A stretch of DNA of 64,000 nt from Sedimentisphaerales bacterium (GTDB lineage: Bacteria > Planctomycetota > Phycisphaerae > Sedimentisphaerales > SM23-30): assembly GCA_963666285.1 (NCBI GenBank), contig OY762711.1; one strand, given 5' to 3'. This document shows, in pieces, positions 55,266-63,569 of this stretch. Made by a program: the position numbers and the translations under genes. The notes under the pieces were generated by a model. That model did no database searches. It saw only the letters and a program-made list of their open reading frames with translations, and was not told where the DNA came from. The first letter of the stretch is position 1; the number at the start of each line of letters is the position of its first letter.

Positions 55266-55799
55266 TCAGATTATATTCTTTTTAGACCATTCTCTTATCT
55301 TACGGATCTCCTTTTGGGATAAATTCAGCGATTCCAGAAAATCCTGATGAGCTTCCGGTGCCGCTGCTTCAAATTCACGGTGCCATTGCCGCATTCCCTG
55401 CTCATCCAGCCCGGCTGCCGCCAGGAAACTCACCCACATCTCCCTGGTTACCACCCTGGCATCCTTCAACAGCTTCTTATTACCCAGTAGCCCGACGATT
55501 ATCTGCTGCTGACAACGCAGATCATTTATCTCATCGTTTATCGCTGACAGTCGCTGCTGCAGTAATTCCGCTCGATGCGACTTGCCCTGCTTGAGAATCT
55601 CGGCAATCTCATTCAGTGAAAGACCCGTTCTGCGAAGCTCACATATCTGCTCAAGCTTACAATAATGTTCATCGGTATAAACTCGATAATCGCCGCTCGC
55701 TCGCTTTCCCGGACTTAACAGACCTATCGAATCATAATACAGCAGCGTACTGCGAGACAATCCAAACTCTTTCGCCAGTTTTGAAACACTGTATTCCAT
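55266..55799 (-). CDS. MerR family transcriptional regulator
   Basis: YSVSKLAKEFGLSRSTLLYYDSIGLL..R..DYRVY; GAGG SD before ATG 55799. Confidence 0.92.
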   Translation of the reverse strand: MEYSVSKLAKEFGLSRSTLLYYDSIGLLSPGKRASGDYRVYTDEHYCKLEQICELRRTGLSLNEIAEILKQGKSHRAELLQQRLSAINDEINDLRCQQQIIVGLLGNKKLLKDARVVTREMWVSFLAAAGLDEQGMRQWHREFEAAAPEAHQDFLESLNLSQKEIRKIREWSKKNII

Positions 55800-55810
55800 G
55801 TTCAAACCTC

Positions 55811-55840
55811 AAAAAGCCCCCCGGCATAACACCGGGGAGC
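55811..55840 (-). terminator. Terminator-like hairpin between the small gene and merR
   Basis: Minus strand GCTCCCCGG-tgttatg-CCGGGGGGC-TTTTT. Confidence 0.7.
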
Positions 55841-55851
55841 ATAAACTGCCT

Positions 55852-56037
55852 TTATTTATATTGGCTTCTAACCTGATTTACCCATTCGACATCACCCGGC
55901 TTTAGCCATTCCAGAAAACTCTGATGACCGTCCGGGTTGGTATGTTCAAATATCTTATGCCATTTGTGCATATCTGCCTGGCTCAAACCAACCTGCCCGA
56001 ACATATCCTTCCATTGTTCTACTGATACTTTACTCAT
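55852..56037 (-). CDS. Stand-alone homologue of the adjacent MerR C-terminal domain (61 aa)
   Basis: VSVEQWKDMFGQVGLSQADMHKWHKIFEHTNPDGHQSFLEWL vs MerR VTREMWVSFLAAAGLDEQGMRQWHREFEAAAPEAHQDFLESL; GAAAGGA SD. Confidence 0.85.
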   Translation of the reverse strand: MSKVSVEQWKDMFGQVGLSQADMHKWHKIFEHTNPDGHQSFLEWLKPGDVEWVNQVRSQYK

Positions 56038-56118
56038 TTGATTTCCTTTCAATCTTAGGATAACATTTTTCGTTAAAACTCCAATAGCATTCTGGCCAAA
56101 AACTGCTAACTGAAATCT

Positions 56119-56149
56119 AATTTACACTATAAAGCTATAGACAGGTCAA
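56119..56149 (-). promoter_or_regulatory. MerR-type promoter/operator
   Basis: TTGACC-19bp-TAAATT with dyad CTATA-gctt-TATAG inside the spacer. Confidence 0.7.
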
Positions 56150-56265: not shown

Positions 56266-56460
56266 ATGAAAGCTTATGTAAATGCTGAAACCTGCATAGG
56301 TTGTGAAGTTTGCGTTACTACCTGCCCCGGCGTATTCCAGATGAACGACGATAATATAGCAGAGGTCATTGTCAATATCGTGCCGGAAGCTGACCAGGAT
56401 AACTGCCGAGAGGCTTCTGACTCATGCCCGGTAGAAGCCATTACAATCGAAGATGATTAG
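56266..56460 (+). CDS. Single-cluster ferredoxin
   Basis: CIGCEVC...CP and CPVEAI; GAAAGGA SD. Confidence 0.92.
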   Translation: MKAYVNAETCIGCEVCVTTCPGVFQMNDDNIAEVIVNIVPEADQDNCREASDSCPVEAITIEDD

Positions 56461-56489: not shown

Positions 56490-57800
56490 TCATAATAATG
56501 ATTTCTGCTTTATCTCGAGATATTTCTTCAAAAGCTGAGGTGTTAGCTGCTTCGGTTCAACATCCAGAACTGAAACTCCGCTTCGGCTCATACTTAGCAA
56601 TGCCTCACTTCGCTGATTCATTATATCAATTGCTACCGCCTTCTGATACAGGTTTTCAGAATCAAATAACGGCTCACTGGAAACTGCATCTACATCTGTA
56701 TCTACCATAGTTATAGCCAACGGTAAATGGCGGCGGCGAAACCTGGCCATATATCCGATTATGTCGGCATTGGCACTGCTGTCAATTATATCTGTCATCA
56801 GGCATACCAGGCTCCGTTTACGGCTTTTTAACGCCAGGTATTGACAGGCAGAATTATAATCACTTTCGACCATTTTGGGCTTCATATCATAAAGCTGGTC
56901 TACCACAAGGTTCAGGTTGCTTAACTTCCTGACCGGCGGCAGATACCTGTCGATTTTATCACTAAAAACAAGAAGGCTAAACCAGTCACCGCGAGACAAG
57001 GTAACACCTGCCAACATGATTGCTGCCTCGATAAAATAATCCAATCTGCTCTGGCCGTCAAACTCAGAAACACTGCTTCGACCGGCATCAATTGCAACCA
57101 GAACATTCTGCTGACGTTCTGGCTCAAAATTGCGCACTATCATCTGCTGACGCCGGGCTGTTGCTTTCCAGTCGACTTTATTAGTACTATCGCCGGGAAC
57201 GTAATAACGCAAACTTTCAAAGTCTGTCCCCTGTCCGTATTTCCTCATTGAGGTCAAACCCGGATCATTTGTATATCCATGCCTTAACAGGTAATTAAAA
57301 TGATCAAACTTTGTCAAATTGGGATATACAACTACATCCGATTCCAGATATATCTCATACTGACGAGCCAGTATCCCCAGGGCAGGCAGCACCCGCATAT
57401 ACAAAGTACTGTAACGATAATGACCTCTTTTTACCGGACAAACATTATATCTAACAACAGCATCTTCTCCCCGTAGCAGTTTAACCTTGATTGGCTTGTT
57501 ATCGTAAACAAAATCATCAGGCACTCCATCGACTAGCCACAGTTCTACCGTCCTTCGGCTATTATTGGAAATATGAAGTTCAACCTGCTCTTCTTTTCCC
57601 TGGGAAAATCTGGATGGCACTACCCTGTTTATACCAACTTTGGAACGTCCGGGTACCATAAAAAAATCTATCAGAACATAAAACAGCAGCAGAAGATAAT
57701 ACAGCAACCCAAGGCTGGCTATTCCGTCTACGAACTGACCGGCCAGTAGCGCAGGGCTTCCTAGCAGAATCAGGATTATAAGTTTTAAGGATGGTACCAT
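56490..57800 (-). CDS. DUF58 / vWA-like protein
   Basis: GTDFESLRYYVPGD..VDWKATAR, IDAGRS. Confidence 0.88.
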   Translation of the reverse strand: MVPSLKLIILILLGSPALLAGQFVDGIASLGLLYYLLLLFYVLIDFFMVPGRSKVGINRVVPSRFSQGKEEQVELHISNNSRRTVELWLVDGVPDDFVYDNKPIKVKLLRGEDAVVRYNVCPVKRGHYRYSTLYMRVLPALGILARQYEIYLESDVVVYPNLTKFDHFNYLLRHGYTNDPGLTSMRKYGQGTDFESLRYYVPGDSTNKVDWKATARRQQMIVRNFEPERQQNVLVAIDAGRSSVSEFDGQSRLDYFIEAAIMLAGVTLSRGDWFSLLVFSDKIDRYLPPVRKLSNLNLVVDQLYDMKPKMVESDYNSACQYLALKSRKRSLVCLMTDIIDSSANADIIGYMARFRRRHLPLAITMVDTDVDAVSSEPLFDSENLYQKAVAIDIMNQRSEALLSMSRSGVSVLDVEPKQLTPQLLKKYLEIKQKSLL

Positions 57801-57832
57801 TTATTTGCTCGCCAACTTTTATAGTATATCCC

Positions 57833-58789
57833 CTATCTGGGCACCTCTATTCTACCCAGCAATACATTTAGACAGTCATCTGCTGACCGACCCTCAATCT
57901 CGTATTCCGGCTTGAGAATAACTCTATGTCTTAGTACCGGTAAGGCCATTTCTTTTACACTGTCAGGGGTAACAAACTCATATCCTGAAACAACAGAGTG
58001 AGCTTTCGCCGCCAGCAGCAGCATACCCCCCGAACGCGGACCCGCACCTAGTGCTATCTGGGGCATAACCCTTGTTTCCCGTACTATCTTTACAATATAA
58101 TCCAATACTTTCTGATCTGTTGGCAGCTTTCGCACGTAATCTCGTATTTCTGCCAGAGTAGCAAGGTCAACTACCTTCTCAATATTTGCGGTTGACAAAT
58201 CACGACTGTCAAAACCGGCTTCGATATTGGCAAGTATACGGTTCTCATGTTCAAGCTCAGGATAATCAATATTAATCTTAAGCATAAACCTGTCCAGTTG
58301 AGCCTCCGGCAACGGATATGTCCCCTCAAATTCTACCGGGTTCTGTGTCGCAACCACCATAAACACTTTTGACAGCGGATAAGTTACTCCGTCAACTGAA
58401 ACACTCTGCTCTTCCATAGCTTCCAGGAGTGCCGATTGTGTCTTGGCCGGTGCCCGGTTAACCTCATCTGCCAGGAATATATCGCTGAATACCGGGCCAT
58501 GGCGAAACTCAAAGCAACTCCCGGTATTATTATAAATATTCACACCAACAATATCGGAAGGCATCAGGTCGGGCGTAAACTGTACTCGCATAAACTTACT
58601 ATCTGTCAGAACTGAAAGTAGTCTGGCTAATAATGTCTTGGCTGTCCCCGGAACGCCCTCTAGCAGCACATGCCCTCCGGCAAACATTGCAGAGGTTAGA
58701 TGCTCCAACGCTCTTTCCTGACCGACAACTACCCTTCCGGCCTGTTCTATTATCTGCGAAACATAAGTATTAACTTTTCCTGTATCCAT
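57833..58789 (-). CDS. moxR: MoxR family AAA+ ATPase
   Basis: GHVLLEGVPGTAKT, QFTPDLMPSD, ADEVNRAPAKTQSALLEAM, ATQNPVEFEGTYPLPEAQLDRF. Confidence 0.95.
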   Translation of the reverse strand: MDTGKVNTYVSQIIEQAGRVVVGQERALEHLTSAMFAGGHVLLEGVPGTAKTLLARLLSVLTDSKFMRVQFTPDLMPSDIVGVNIYNNTGSCFEFRHGPVFSDIFLADEVNRAPAKTQSALLEAMEEQSVSVDGVTYPLSKVFMVVATQNPVEFEGTYPLPEAQLDRFMLKINIDYPELEHENRILANIEAGFDSRDLSTANIEKVVDLATLAEIRDYVRKLPTDQKVLDYIVKIVRETRVMPQIALGAGPRSGGMLLLAAKAHSVVSGYEFVTPDSVKEMALPVLRHRVILKPEYEIEGRSADDCLNVLLGRIEVPR

Positions 58790-59942
58790 CGGATAACTCC
58801 AATTCTATTTTGCCTAATTCTTTTATTAGATTTTTAACTTCTCGTTTTGATATTTCACTTTCTAAAGCCGCACCTGCCCTGTCTAGAATATCCCGGTAGT
58901 ATCCTTCCTGCCCTTCAGTTCTCTTGGCGATTTCTGCTGAAAGACTTATATTATCACAAGTTGCAGGAAGGCCAACAGATTCAGAAAACTTTCCTCGCAG
59001 CCATTTATAATTCAACTCAAACATAAGCGGATACGCCCCGGCATTAGTCCAGCATGAACCTGCCGAATGAACATATTCCAACTTGGCACGACGTCTCTGA
59101 CCCGGCAGCTGCCTAACCGGGCCAAATCGCTTGCCCTGCTGCCATATATAACACATTCCGGCAACTGCCAGCGAAACTACAAACCACCCCCAGGGTGTAT
59201 TTGCCAGCATATTACCTAACAGGGTATATGATGTCTCTATATCCTTATATTCTCGATAATGACTCTCATCAAAAAGTACCTCTCCTGCACGTATACCGCC
59301 TAAGGCATAATGCACCAGATTAATCGCAAGTACACTGTTGTCATCGAGGCTAAGGTTCGTATTCGTTAAAATATCTGGCGATACAAGCCTGATTATTTTG
59401 CCAAGACCTAACTCCTTCTCTATTATCCTGGCCTTGCTATTTTCGTAGTACAACACCTTATATTCTTCAGTATCATCCATATCAAAGGAATACCTGAATT
59501 CCCAACTAGTCTTTGTCACATCCCGGGCCAGGATATTTTCCTCTTCTTTAACTTTACCCGAAGCACCTCCATATAACGCTGCTATACTATCATCCGGGAG
59601 TATTCCGCTATCGCAGATCAATACCCCGCCATCACGCACCCATCTCTCAAGCGAAGCTATATGATCATCAGCTATCACTACCTTTGGAGATATCATCAAC
59701 AATACCTTACAGCTTTCCTGCAGCTGTTCGAATCTGTCCAGCCTGTCGATATTGTATTCAAGCTCTTCACATAACAGGTAGAATGCCTTTGTCCCTTTGA
59801 AACCGGTGTACTTACTGCTGTGTAGATCTTTGTGCAGTTCAGACTCACCTGAACCCAGTGAAAACATTATAACAGTCGACAAAACAATCAGGCCTGTGAT
59901 TATCAATAGATCTTTTTTATTGTCTTTGATTGCTTTCAGCAT
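58770..59942 (-). CDS. DUF4350-like membrane protein
   Basis: N-terminal TM, GTKAF, WVRDGG, VLFDESH, TM then RFGP; MoxR cluster context. Confidence 0.75.
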   Translation of the reverse strand: MLKAIKDNKKDLLIITGLIVLSTVIMFSLGSGESELHKDLHSSKYTGFKGTKAFYLLCEELEYNIDRLDRFEQLQESCKVLLMISPKVVIADDHIASLERWVRDGGVLICDSGILPDDSIAALYGGASGKVKEEENILARDVTKTSWEFRYSFDMDDTEEYKVLYYENSKARIIEKELGLGKIIRLVSPDILTNTNLSLDDNSVLAINLVHYALGGIRAGEVLFDESHYREYKDIETSYTLLGNMLANTPWGWFVVSLAVAGMCYIWQQGKRFGPVRQLPGQRRRAKLEYVHSAGSCWTNAGAYPLMFELNYKWLRGKFSESVGLPATCDNISLSAEIAKRTEGQEGYYRDILDRAGAALESEISKREVKNLIKELGKIELELSDGYRKS

Positions 59943-60724
59943 TAGTTCGCCTGCTCACACTCCCGCTCTATCTGCTCGTAAGCACTATACATATTTCGGA
60001 AGTATAGCTCATCGCATCCCTTAAATCCGTATGCCACCGATTCAAATCCGATAATATACTGTCGAAATTTATTAAATATAATGCTGCCGCGCCCGCATTC
60101 CCGCAAGTAATCTCCGTTTGTCTTGGATGGATGCACTATGATATACTCAAATGACTCAAGACGCTTTAATAGCGATGCTGTCAAAAATGACAACGCCCGG
60201 GCATAATCCTTCGCCGCTAGGCTTTTTTCCATCTCTAACAGAAGGTCTTTCACACTCATACGATAGGTATTCTCTGCAAAATCGCCATCAACTCCAAAAG
60301 CTTTCCTATTCGCAGAACCTGTGTGAATTGTAATATACAACGCCCATATAAAATGTGCTAATATTGCCAGCATAGTTATAACACACCAGATTATTAGAAC
60401 CCATACCAGGAAATTTGCCAGCCCGGAATGCTCACCAGGTTCTCTATCTCCAAATAATTTATCCAGAAAATCAATGACTTTTCGCCAGAAACTGTTTTCC
60501 TGCCCCAAGATGTCCCTGAACTCTGGCCGGCTCATAACTTTTTGGGTCGAGTCTTTTATTGCTGAGCTTTCCGGACATTCTACAGATTCACGAATTGAAG
60601 ATGCCCCCAATGCATAATCTCCTGGCTCAGAACCTTTCCCATCTTCAGCATATATATCAATGGCCAACAGCAATAACAATATTACCATTGGCCATAATAT
60701 GATTTTTTCTGTTATTGTTTTCAA
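59942..60724 (-). CDS. DUF4129-like membrane protein
   Basis: TM segment, SKTNGDY, FESVAYG. Confidence 0.72.
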   Translation of the reverse strand: MKTITEKIILWPMVILLLLLAIDIYAEDGKGSEPGDYALGASSIRESVECPESSAIKDSTQKVMSRPEFRDILGQENSFWRKVIDFLDKLFGDREPGEHSGLANFLVWVLIIWCVITMLAILAHFIWALYITIHTGSANRKAFGVDGDFAENTYRMSVKDLLLEMEKSLAAKDYARALSFLTASLLKRLESFEYIIVHPSKTNGDYLRECGRGSIIFNKFRQYIIGFESVAYGFKGCDELYFRNMYSAYEQIERECEQAN

Positions 60725-61608
60725 TCCAACCTGCCGGGATCATATGTAAAATCTCTAACTTCCTGGTCTATACCAGCTGTATCCTGACCTGCCATACCTT
60801 GTGCCAGCATTTCCAGGTCAAAACCTTCCTTACGAATCCGCAGATCATAATATAATAATACAATTGCTCCGGCTGTTATCGGTGCAGTTATTATTGATGC
60901 TATTGTTTGCATCGCCTGCTGTACTATTAAAAATGTGGTACTGGCTGATTCTACCGATTCCGGGTCAGTTATAGCTGCTAATCCTCCGCCCATTATTGCT
61001 CCAACTATCCCCGTGAGTGCTCCATTAATTATTGCAGCTATCAATCCGGCTAAAAATATTGTTCCGAATATTTTGCCTAGATTACCCTTCGTCAGTTCTT
61101 TGCTGCGGCTAAGTGAACTCATCGCCCCTGAACCTTCAAGAACTATCACCACTGATATCATACTGTACCATAAACCAAAAATAACACCTGGCACAATAAA
61201 CAAAAAGTACCCTAGAATTATTATCAGCGTAGAAACAAAGCCCGCACCAATCATCTTGCCTAGTTTTGGTAGAACAACACCAAATACTTCACCTGTTTCC
61301 AAGCTCTTTCCCAAATATAATTCTGAAAAACCCTGGGCCAGAATTCCCGAACACAATACAGTTCCCAACATAGATAGTAAACCCGGCCCCAAAGCCATTA
61401 CGATCGCAATGATCGCCTCTGCACCTGACATATTCTGATTTGGCGATGAAATCACCGTTACATTCAGAAATGCTGAAATAATACCAATAGGAACAAAAAT
61501 AATTGATATCATCGCTGCAAATTTAAGAAAATTCTTACTGTAAAAGAAAAATACCCTGTCAATAATGCGAGTCGCACTCATTGGCACAAATTGCTGACCT
61601 TCCATCAT
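60721..61608 (-). CDS. Polytopic membrane protein of the MoxR cluster
   Basis: PMS..IID, SLSRSKEL, LLYYDLRIRKEGFDLE. Confidence 0.78.
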   Translation of the reverse strand: MMEGQQFVPMSATRIIDRVFFFYSKNFLKFAAMISIIFVPIGIISAFLNVTVISSPNQNMSGAEAIIAIVMALGPGLLSMLGTVLCSGILAQGFSELYLGKSLETGEVFGVVLPKLGKMIGAGFVSTLIIILGYFLFIVPGVIFGLWYSMISVVIVLEGSGAMSSLSRSKELTKGNLGKIFGTIFLAGLIAAIINGALTGIVGAIMGGGLAAITDPESVESASTTFLIVQQAMQTIASIITAPITAGAIVLLYYDLRIRKEGFDLEMLAQGMAGQDTAGIDQEVRDFTYDPGRLD

Positions 61609-61805
61609 AAGTCCTTTCACCTGATAAATAATAACCATTAAAATATTTAGTAGTAACTTAAAATATTATATTTGCTATAACTCCATTGTCAATCAGTAAT
61701 TCTAACGTTTTTCGTCTTGTCCGAGTATTTATTTGATTCCATAGCGGCTGCATACTATAATGTCATTTGTTCTGGACATTTATGATTGTTAATAGGATTA
61801 ATCAT

Positions 61806-62570
61806 ATGATCGAATATGACGTACATGACAAAATTGAAACCCCGGAAAATGTAGAGCTCACCCGCACTATCGCCGGGCTGGGGTCAAGAATTTCTGCGGG
61901 ATTATTTGACTATTTGCTAATCGTTTTGATCTTCCTTGTCATTTTTTTCATTCTCGCGCTAAGTTCAAACGTCTTTTCATATCGCGGCGGCAGTATGTCA
62001 GATTTCGTTTTGGCCGCTTTCTTCATAGGCATGTTTCTATTCTACTGGGGCTATTTCGCTTTTTTTGAATGGATTACCAACGGCCAGACTCCCGGCAAAA
62101 AAAGTGTCCACCTCAGGGTAGTTTGCGAAAACGGCAGCCCGATCACGTTCAAACATATCGCCGTTAGAAATATTATTCGATTTGTCGATATGCTGCCGGG
62201 CATGTATTTCCTCGCTATTGTTTTCATCTTCTGTTCCAAACGTAAACAAAGAATTGGTGATATGGCAGCAGGAACAATAGTGGTAAGCGAAGAAAAACTG
62301 CAATACGGAGCAACTGACAAAGTTAATAAGAAAAATGACAATTGGCAGATGGAAATTACTGCTGAAGTTCTGGAAAAATCCGGCCTGAGCCCCGAAGAAC
62401 TTAACATTATACAGAACTTTTACGTTCGAAGATCGGAGCTTAGCCACGATGCTATTGTCAAAATACTGCCTGGCATACTTAAGCCGATAATGTCACGTCA
62501 AGGCACCTGGCGGGATGATATGTCTATCAGTGAAATGCTTGACTATATTGAATGCACGTTGCAGATTTAG
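61806..62570 (+). CDS. RDD family protein
   Basis: ETPENV, AGLGSR..A.LFD, GQTPGKK, RNIIR.VD, QRIGDMAAGT. Confidence 0.9.
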   Translation: MIEYDVHDKIETPENVELTRTIAGLGSRISAGLFDYLLIVLIFLVIFFILALSSNVFSYRGGSMSDFVLAAFFIGMFLFYWGYFAFFEWITNGQTPGKKSVHLRVVCENGSPITFKHIAVRNIIRFVDMLPGMYFLAIVFIFCSKRKQRIGDMAAGTIVVSEEKLQYGATDKVNKKNDNWQMEITAEVLEKSGLSPEELNIIQNFYVRRSELSHDAIVKILPGILKPIMSRQGTWRDDMSISEMLDYIECTLQI

Positions 62571-62588
62571 AAGTAAAAAGGAAAAAAC

Positions 62589-63569
62589 ATGACACCGGCT
62601 GCCTTTCTGGAAAACCGAAAACCCATCTGGGACAGGGTCGAGCACCTGCTTGACTGTGCCGGTAAATCCGGATGCAGAAAACTCACCCACCAACAGCTGC
62701 ATGAATTAACCAGGCTGTACCCTACAATTGCGGTCGATGTATCAAAAGTCAGAATGTATAAGTTGGATAATATCACTCTGTCAAGGGTTAACGACCTGGC
62801 TATACGGGCACACGGTTTACTCTACCAAAGAAAAAAAGAAAAAAGCGATACCGGTGTTATTAAATTCATTCTGAAAGACTATCCGGCTATCTTCCGAAAA
62901 AATATCTCTTATCTGCTTTTCGCCATTTTGCTCTTTTGCATACCTATGGTCTCGACATATTCGATTGTCAGGCTCAACCCCGATACGGCATACACCTTTA
63001 TGCCATACGGCCTGGATATTGAAAATTCGGATACTGTCACCGCCGAAGATGTCAGCGAGCGATACCGACAAATGTCCGGAACGGTAATGTCCGCTTCAAT
63101 TACAACAAATAATATACAAGTCGCCCTGATTGCTTTCTCACTGGGCATAGTTTTCGCACTGGGAACCTGCTATATATTGCTTTCCAACTCAATTATGCTG
63201 GGCTGCTTCATAGGCCATTTTACAAACCATGGGCTCAGCACCGAACTATGGTATTTCCTCGCACCACACGGCCTGCTGGAAATATTTGCGATTATAGTTG
63301 CCGGTGCCGCCGGGCTAAAACTTGGACTTTCAATACTAATACCCAAAAACCTTACCAGGGTTGACTCACTGAAAAAAGGTGCCTCTGAGTCTGTTGTGTA
63401 TGTGCTGGGGACAATTCCAATGTTCATCGTTGCAGGATTCATTGAAAGCTACATCACACCCGCCTATTTTGATGGAAGGTTAAAAGTACTCATTGGCTTC
63501 GCCGCACTTGGCATATCCCTGGCATACCTGCTCCTAGTCGGCAGAAATAAGCCGCAAATGGAAAATTAA
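62589..63569 (+). CDS. spoIIM: SpoIIM / DUF95 membrane protein
   Basis: NNIQVA, PHGLLEI, AGFIESYITP. Confidence 0.85.
   Translation: MTPAAFLENRKPIWDRVEHLLDCAGKSGCRKLTHQQLHELTRLYPTIAVDVSKVRMYKLDNITLSRVNDLAIRAHGLLYQRKKEKSDTGVIKFILKDYPAIFRKNISYLLFAILLFCIPMVSTYSIVRLNPDTAYTFMPYGLDIENSDTVTAEDVSERYRQMSGTVMSASITTNNIQVALIAFSLGIVFALGTCYILLSNSIMLGCFIGHFTNHGLSTELWYFLAPHGLLEIFAIIVAGAAGLKLGLSILIPKNLTRVDSLKKGASESVVYVLGTIPMFIVAGFIESYITPAYFDGRLKVLIGFAALGISLAYLLLVGRNKPQMEN

Follow-up and report, generated by a model that had tools for sequence, protein, structure and literature searches.

Two described MerR-type systems provide the closest precedents for the locus considered here. TipAL of Streptomyces lividans is self-regulated and is paired with TipAS, a short form consisting of the ligand domain only, according to the accessible text of PMC6078987. 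In the AlbAL/AlbAS pair of Klebsiella oxytoca, a free ligand-binding domain sequesters the ligand within a positive-feedback circuit, as far as the available parts of two sources describe it (bioRxiv 10.64898/2026.09.21.753095; PMC6078987). For the family at large, the consulted sections of PMC8113463 present MerR operators as pseudo-palindromes within 19-20-bp spacers, and those of PMC5045206 give an 8-bp rule for the centre of 22-bp MerR sites relative to the -35 element.

The locus lies in a 64,000-nt stretch (the window) of contig OY762711.1 from a Sedimentisphaerales bacterium. On the minus strand, a promoter with -35 hexamer TTGACC (56144..56149) and -10 hexamer TAAATT (56119..56124), as read from the sequence 19 nt apart, is followed by the Shine-Dalgarno (SD) sequence AAGGA (56044..56048), located 6 nt upstream of the ATG at 56037 of a 61-aa gene (55852..56037). 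This gene, recognized as an ORF and by homology, encodes a free-standing copy of the MerR C-terminal domain; its product aligns with residues 117-169 of the adjoining MerR at 35% identity (E 5e-11), as had been claimed. A GC-rich hairpin (55840-55816) with a T5 run, together spanning 55811..55840, is predicted to be a leaky terminator or a 3' stabiliser, and immediately 3' of the T run comes the SD sequence GAGGT (55806..55810) of merR (55266..55799, ATG at 55799), which encodes a 177-aa MerR-family regulator (PF13411, E 7e-18). Thus, the promoter, the strong SD, the small gene, the hairpin with T5 and merR were all found where the original prediction had placed them. The 64-aa 4Fe-4S ferredoxin at 56266-56460 (plus strand), transcribed away from the cassette, is a chance neighbour, because it is absent from 247 other loci; the flanking GDPD-like genes recur in none of these loci either, which rules out both as members of the system. 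Farther away, the stretches 56490-61638 (minus strand) and 61767-63569 (plus strand) hold a MoxR AAA gene and a DUF58 gene (Pfam) with membrane-protein ORFs around them, which looks like an ordinary MoxR cluster.

The regulator consists of an HTH region (residues 3-71), a predicted coiled coil and a C-terminal domain at about 117-173 that carries His140, Glu144 and His151. Its winged HTH scores well above the Pfam cut-offs (PF13411, 64.9 bits against 21.6; PF00376, 42.2 against 28.2), and its best PDB matches, MtaN (1jbg) and TipA (2vz4), cover the N-terminal part only. VCA0056, which we took to be a possible orthologue, was dropped as a lead, the papers listed for it concerning a blue-light or anaerobiosis MerR.

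The cassette resembles TipAL/TipAS in its MerR HTH, in self-regulation and in having a short form made of the ligand domain only; relatives of it have a predicted internal start at the domain border. Self-regulation is read here from genomics, since the operator heads the merR-containing unit and is the single site in the genome. Unlike TipAS, the short form in the window is a separate, diverged gene placed first, and the domain is about 60 aa rather than about 140 and has no conserved Cys. With AlbAL/AlbAS the cassette shares the combination of a regulator and a free ligand domain, sequestration being here only proposed, whereas AlbAS, which arises from an in-frame start, is a tandem domain of 221 aa and has no sequence match to the domain described here. 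The TipAS family of Pfam matched neither window protein at E<=1 and was not among the 25 families listed for 80 members. The domain profile did not match the TipAS or AlbAS chains at E<=10, and the SkgA and Mta-like chains match in the HTH only. Because the TipAS sequence test failed and a separate gene is used, the cassette is not filed under the TipA/AlbA class; it may well work like these systems, but membership is not claimed.

The 19-bp-spacer, MerR-type promoter of the original prediction is borne out by 179 operator sites, across which the 19-nt geometry is fixed. Each letter of the -35 hexamer occurs at a frequency of 0.97-0.99, and in the -10 hexamer A at position 2 (motif position 27) and T at position 6 (motif position 31) are conserved at 1.00 and 0.95, respectively. 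The majority letters of these sites give the consensus TTGACCYGWCTANNRCTTCANRGTTNANNNT. With a matrix built from other loci, the window promoter scores 36.1 bits and is the only match in its 6.35-Mb genome, where the runner-up scores 14.6; a generic promoter scan missed it because that scan takes only 16-18-nt spacers. The predicted 22-bp MerR operator (56125..56146, limits inferred from the sequence) would lie inside the spacer and overlap the -35. Its centre, at motif position 14.5, agrees with the 8-bp rule as worded in the accessible part of PMC5045206; the family criterion that we applied was a pseudo-palindromic operator centred 7-8 bp from the -35. Symmetry is imperfect, mean complementarity over the 179 operators being 0.45 around centre 10.5, 0.40 around 14.5 and 0.33 around 16.5. 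The last value concerns the CTATA-GCTT-TATAG dyad (56127..56140; CTATA at 56140-56136, TATAG at 56131-56127) on which the original prediction had relied: the dyad is present in the window, but symmetry about its centre, at position 16.5 of the 31-mer, shows only weak conservation in the family.

In its HTH, TTGAC -35, 19-nt spacer and imperfect symmetry between -35 and -10, the system resembles BmrR, Mta, EcmrR and CueR, as these are portrayed in the consulted parts of PMC5045206 and PMC8113463. It differs from them in having an effector domain unrelated by sequence and an operator consensus of its own, and in that what it apparently produces in the main is a sensor-domain copy, not an efflux pump.

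The operator also stands upstream of 80 of the 84 free genes for which 150 nt of flank were available; the four remaining cases comprise two frameshifted merR pieces, one distal gene and one degenerate site. An exact-pattern scan of the genomes of 50 of the 64 loci given found two sites per genome in 7 of the 50 (1 match in the reversed control). Operator-first scans of 301 genomes from a single deltaproteobacterial class gave 10 matches in 9 genomes (control 4); 7 of these score >29 bits, and 6 of the 7 precede family genes. In 151 gammaproteobacterial genomes, 29 matches were spread over 20 genomes (control 1); 28 of them score >25 bits and 27 have an assignable first gene. At one locus (L090:1004-1110, plus strand), a second operator 6 kb upstream of the cassette, with a similar leader and a very short ORF, is perhaps a decayed duplicate.

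A search with the small protein returned seven short homologues, and a profile search retrieved 551 proteins, free and fused together, at E<=0.001. Among 80 GTDB loci, which were fetched with the small-protein alignment and are therefore biased toward free copies, the free domain was found in 36; it directly precedes merR in 33 of these, has no merR in the stretch in two and follows a MerR-methyltransferase fusion in one. Because of this bias, 80 metagenome loci were picked by MerR alone, with a query that favours close relatives of the window's MerR. They comprise 54 with the free gene, 13 with another gene between operator and merR, 2 with merR directly and 11 that are undecidable, mostly at contig ends. 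The 54 loci, together with the promoter before 80 of 84 free genes, bear out the predicted co-occurrence of small gene, merR and promoter across genomes. By record titles, the family spans at least seven phyla (Thermodesulfobacteriota, Pseudomonadota, Omnitrophota, Verrucomicrobiota, Acidobacteriota, Myxococcota and Planctomycetota). A copy of the domain, in the merR-only layout, is present in just 1 of 60 relatives of the window's genome, many of these genomes being incomplete, which fits lateral spread.

In our opinion, these data probably reflect a conserved two-gene unit in which a ligand-activated MerR mainly yields a free domain that soaks up a toxic compound. The compound would bind the His/Glu/His tail domain of MerR and, by analogy with other family members, the loaded regulator would activate its own 19-bp-spacer promoter by untwisting the DNA, with read-through into merR providing positive autoregulation. 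The 61-residue domain would likely be made in excess, because its gene comes first and the hairpin follows; as with TipAS and AlbAS, it could then sequester the compound stoichiometrically, protecting the cell and damping the loop. The small protein is the apparent output of the circuit, because the cassette is the sole operator match in the genome. What stands of the sensor-plus-sponge circuit originally put forward is that the two genes form a conserved unit under selection, headed by a MerR-type promoter with a 19-bp spacer.

The intergenic hairpin of the window has a z of -3.04, and only 1 of 200 shuffles folds as well. A hairpin with z<=-2 is found in 62 of 85 relatives but in only 4 of 85 segments used as controls. 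By a crude tail call, 9 of the 62 hairpins are followed by five or more T; the hairpin of the predicted terminator is thus conserved, but the U-tail is a minority feature. The element is predicted to act as a leaky terminator or as an mRNA stabiliser, either of which would favour the first gene. A conserved hairpin in the 5' leader, seen by eye, was rejected as not significant (z<=-2 in 18 of 81 loci; window z +0.53).

His27, Glu31 and His38 are invariant, and Met23 is near-invariant, in 80 short proteins, 38 of which were picked by length from the profile search, some with genomic context unchecked. The equivalents of the three residues are also invariant in 36 MerRs, and there is no Cys among the invariant or near-invariant columns of these MerRs. 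It should be noted that in the comparison of free and fused domains the alignment anchor fixes His27 and Glu31 in advance; His38 is not constrained in this way and is invariant nonetheless. Trp44 marks the free form (89 of 91 free copies), whereas Ser occupies this position in 83 of 85 fused domains; free and fused domains thus differ systematically and need not do the same job. An AlphaFold2 model of the small protein (pLDDT 95) has four helices (6-15, 20-33, 35-45 and 50-59) and places Met23, His27 and Glu31 at i, i+4 and i+8 on helix 2 and His38 at the start of helix 3, so that the four residues may form one site. His27, Glu31 and His38 may hold the ligand directly or via a bound metal ion; a domain of about 60 residues is small for a drug pocket.

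Sequence searches with the small protein in Pfam, NCBIfam and PDB found no family, and weak Death, SAM and neurocalcin rows are not believed. Foldseek with the model returned no match at E<=0.001, and in VIA-align the best Z was 3.9, with TipAS and AlbAS not among the best 50 matches listed; for so small a helical domain these lists say little, and absence from them implies neither a different nor a new fold. The ESM Atlas holds only unnamed clusters, at 0.87.

The same residues could belong to a small metal-dependent enzyme that destroys or modifies the inducer by means of a His/Glu/His triad, MerR reusing the domain as a sensor and the free form acting catalytically rather than as a sponge. 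The invariance of the triad and of Met23 nearly so, the restriction of Trp44 to the free form and the fact that the genes replacing the free domain behind the promoter are mostly enzymes are what such a protein would lead one to expect. We consider it unlikely, given the length of about 60 residues, the lack of a profile match to any enzyme and the retention of these residues in the fused regulator, as is expected of a binding site.

The nature of the compound is suggested by the other genes behind the operator. In pooled, biased samples amounting to 205 distinct operators, the first gene encodes the free domain in 83 cases, merR in 63, a START-like protein in 20 and a MerR-methyltransferase fusion in 18; rarer first genes encode an HxxH protein (5), EamA (5), GNAT (4), an alpha/beta hydrolase (2), an Ntn amidase (1) and a MerB-like protein (1), and three are unassigned. 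The START-like, methyltransferase, GNAT, hydrolase and EamA genes point to a toxic small molecule, and the ligand is most likely, on these sequence associations, a small organic molecule open to methylation, acetylation, hydrolysis or export. A metal-bound or organometallic ligand is possible, and heme appears to fit least. Heme, one of the candidates first proposed, lost ground because the promoter otherwise precedes genes for methyltransferases, acetyltransferases, hydrolases and an exporter. By tblastn, no START, HxxH or methyltransferase partner is present in the window's genome.

The commonest non-cognate target is a START/SRPBCC-like protein of about 165 aa (L092:2815-3336, minus strand, and 19 other loci). 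It is the sole cross-lineage partner in a neighbour clustering of proteins of at least 90 aa, and genomes that have the free gene can carry it as a second target (L087, L092). It has an FPLLCPVRE motif, a C-terminal HYL and conserved Cys36 and His158; the label START-like is only a lead, because there is no PDB sequence match and Polyketide_cyc2 stays below its cut-off (best E 7e-6). The HxxH protein, all-helical and about 135 aa long, stands behind the operator at L133:2307-2717 (minus strand) and at L149, L118, L180 and L194. It has a conserved F-x-H-x-G-H-L-R motif with His29 and His32. Its model (pLDDT 93) is closest in VIA to a saposin-like chain (Z 6.2 over 75 residues); Pfam and Foldseek gave no match, and the ESM Atlas places it in unnamed clusters of up to 1062 members. 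A MerB/SaoL-like ORF under the second operator of one genome (G642; L220:801-1406, minus strand) matches PF03243 at E 3e-11, falls below the NCBIfam cut-offs and has an in-frame TGA at the likely catalytic residue; it is possibly a selenoprotein. At L216:3-950 (minus strand), an MFS gene (H+ antiporter-like) that follows merR and overlaps it is a possible further efflux output.

The MerR-methyltransferase fusions (about 390 aa; L202, L210, L211, L222-L249) are common in gammaproteobacteria, often beside GNAT genes. They share the operator and keep a degenerate domain between HTH and methyltransferase; they differ from the cassette in that an enzyme is fused to the regulator. Some genomes hold both a fusion and a short MerR, so cross-regulation is possible. 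The methyltransferase part matches 3svz/3f4k (E 3e-27), structures of BT_2972 for which the consulted part of PMC3225368 gives no established substrate; our literature search found no publication on the fusions.

Alternatively, MerR could respond to a metal ion, an organometal or heme, with the free domain serving to buffer or carry metal. This reading can draw on the fact that His, Glu and Met are metal ligands, on the conserved His29/His32 and Cys36/His158 of the HxxH and START-like partners, on the MerB-like ORF with its in-frame TGA and on the many MerR proteins that sense metals. It is nevertheless rather improbable. The MerR has no conserved Cys and scores 27-49 bits against the CueR, ZntR, CadR, MerR and SoxR models, whose cut-offs are 117-261; no metal ATPase or CDF was found among the first genes of the 205 operators; organic substrates are what the GNAT, amidase, alpha/beta hydrolase and EamA partners suggest; and the MerB-like case is single.

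Sequestration by a free domain gains from a second route to the short form. Relatives in which merR directly follows the operator are predicted to make it from an internal start. An ATG or GTG with an SD of -4 kcal/mol or better stands at the domain border in 38 of 40 such genes, compared with 12 of 86 free-gene loci, 3 of 13 other-gene loci and 4 of 14 undecided loci; in this count duplicates and frameshifted genes were dropped, and the cut-off was chosen after a first inspection. The signal is seen at the nucleotide level. Of the Arg codons at the border, 51 of 54 are AGA or AGG, whereas the remainder of these genes has 76 of 792; free-gene loci show no comparable bias (36 of 109 at the border, 374 of 1311 outside it). 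The SD is also stronger than under synonymous resampling in 39 of 40 operator-merR genes but in 42 of 85 free-gene loci. Since 37 of the 40 genes fall under one branch (SH-aLRT 88), the class is largely one clade and the Fisher p of 3e-19 overstates the contrast. Partly independent support may come from a gammaproteobacterial sample (33 of 301 genomes), in which 16 of 17 further operator-merR genes keep the signal, as opposed to none of four EamA-first loci, which lie on three branches inside the operator-merR clade.

In the genomes of the two operator-merR loci that lack the internal start (L066 and L190), a free gene stands behind an operator at another site (L089 and L206); the free gene of L206 resembles the internal-start type by eye, which would suggest a second origin of the free gene. 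L101, which has neither form, and L185, with a weak signal, do not fit cleanly, and at L205, an EamA-first plasmid locus, an ATG persists at the border (SD unscored). The window's merR also passes the internal-start test (GTG, weak SD of -5.5). The original likening to TipA and AlbA gains strength from the merR-only relatives, in which an internal SD and start are predicted at the same border.

These observations also bear on a damper acting at the protein level, in which the free domain would bind MerR, or compete for a protein partner, with no small molecule sequestered. Regulator and small protein share the domain and the operon, they have subfamily-specific surface residues, and the accessible text of bioRxiv 10.64898/2026.09.21.753095 has the AlbA ligand domains touching each other in the dimer. 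Yet if the genome's one operator served nothing but a damper, the circuit would lack an output, and it is precisely the loci with an exporter in first place that have lost the short form; we regard such a damper as very improbable.

Free copies occupy one side of a branch with support 87 (FastTree, 53 columns; quick trees were also built). In 76 of 84 loci they are closer to one another (median 53%) than to their own MerR (45%). Moreover, the small gene is under purifying selection, with pN<pS in 29 of 30 disjoint pairs (median 0.20). The similarity of the small ORF to the adjoining gene and its patchy occurrence (1 of the 60 relatives) might suggest a duplicate of the 3' end of merR in decay, but this is hardly credible in view of the single clade, mutual closeness and selection. 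At L213:1589-1943 (plus strand), a free gene passes by a frame change into a MerR C-terminal remnant that lacks the HTH, which may represent a deleted cassette or an assembly error.

The cassette is real, conserved and apparently undescribed: searches of the openly accessible literature found no description of this domain, operator or layout. A broader reading is tentative, and we would not yet rely on it. It holds that these proteins form a MerR subfamily that extends across phyla, is so far undescribed, has a ligand fold of 60 residues (His/Glu/His) that is itself new, and guards soil, sediment and marine bacteria against one widespread class of natural toxin. Two interchangeable routes would lead to the free domain, one by internal start and the other by a separate gene with at least two origins, and the operator would mark detoxifiers (START-like, HxxH, BT_2972-like methyltransferase, GNAT, amidase, EamA and MerB-like) all acting on that toxin.

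The domain at the core of the circuit has no Pfam, NCBIfam or PDB match, and this one family appears to have arrived at the TipA/AlbA design in two ways, through an internal start and through duplication of a gene. At 900 bp, with two genes and a predicted operator, the circuit is well suited to a reporter screen. Once the inducer is found, functions would follow for several unannotated families that share the operator, and a common environmental toxin might come to light together with a tiny sequestering protein for biosensors. Should the broader, cross-phylum reading be true, one reporter screen would name the compound and assign all of the detoxifiers.
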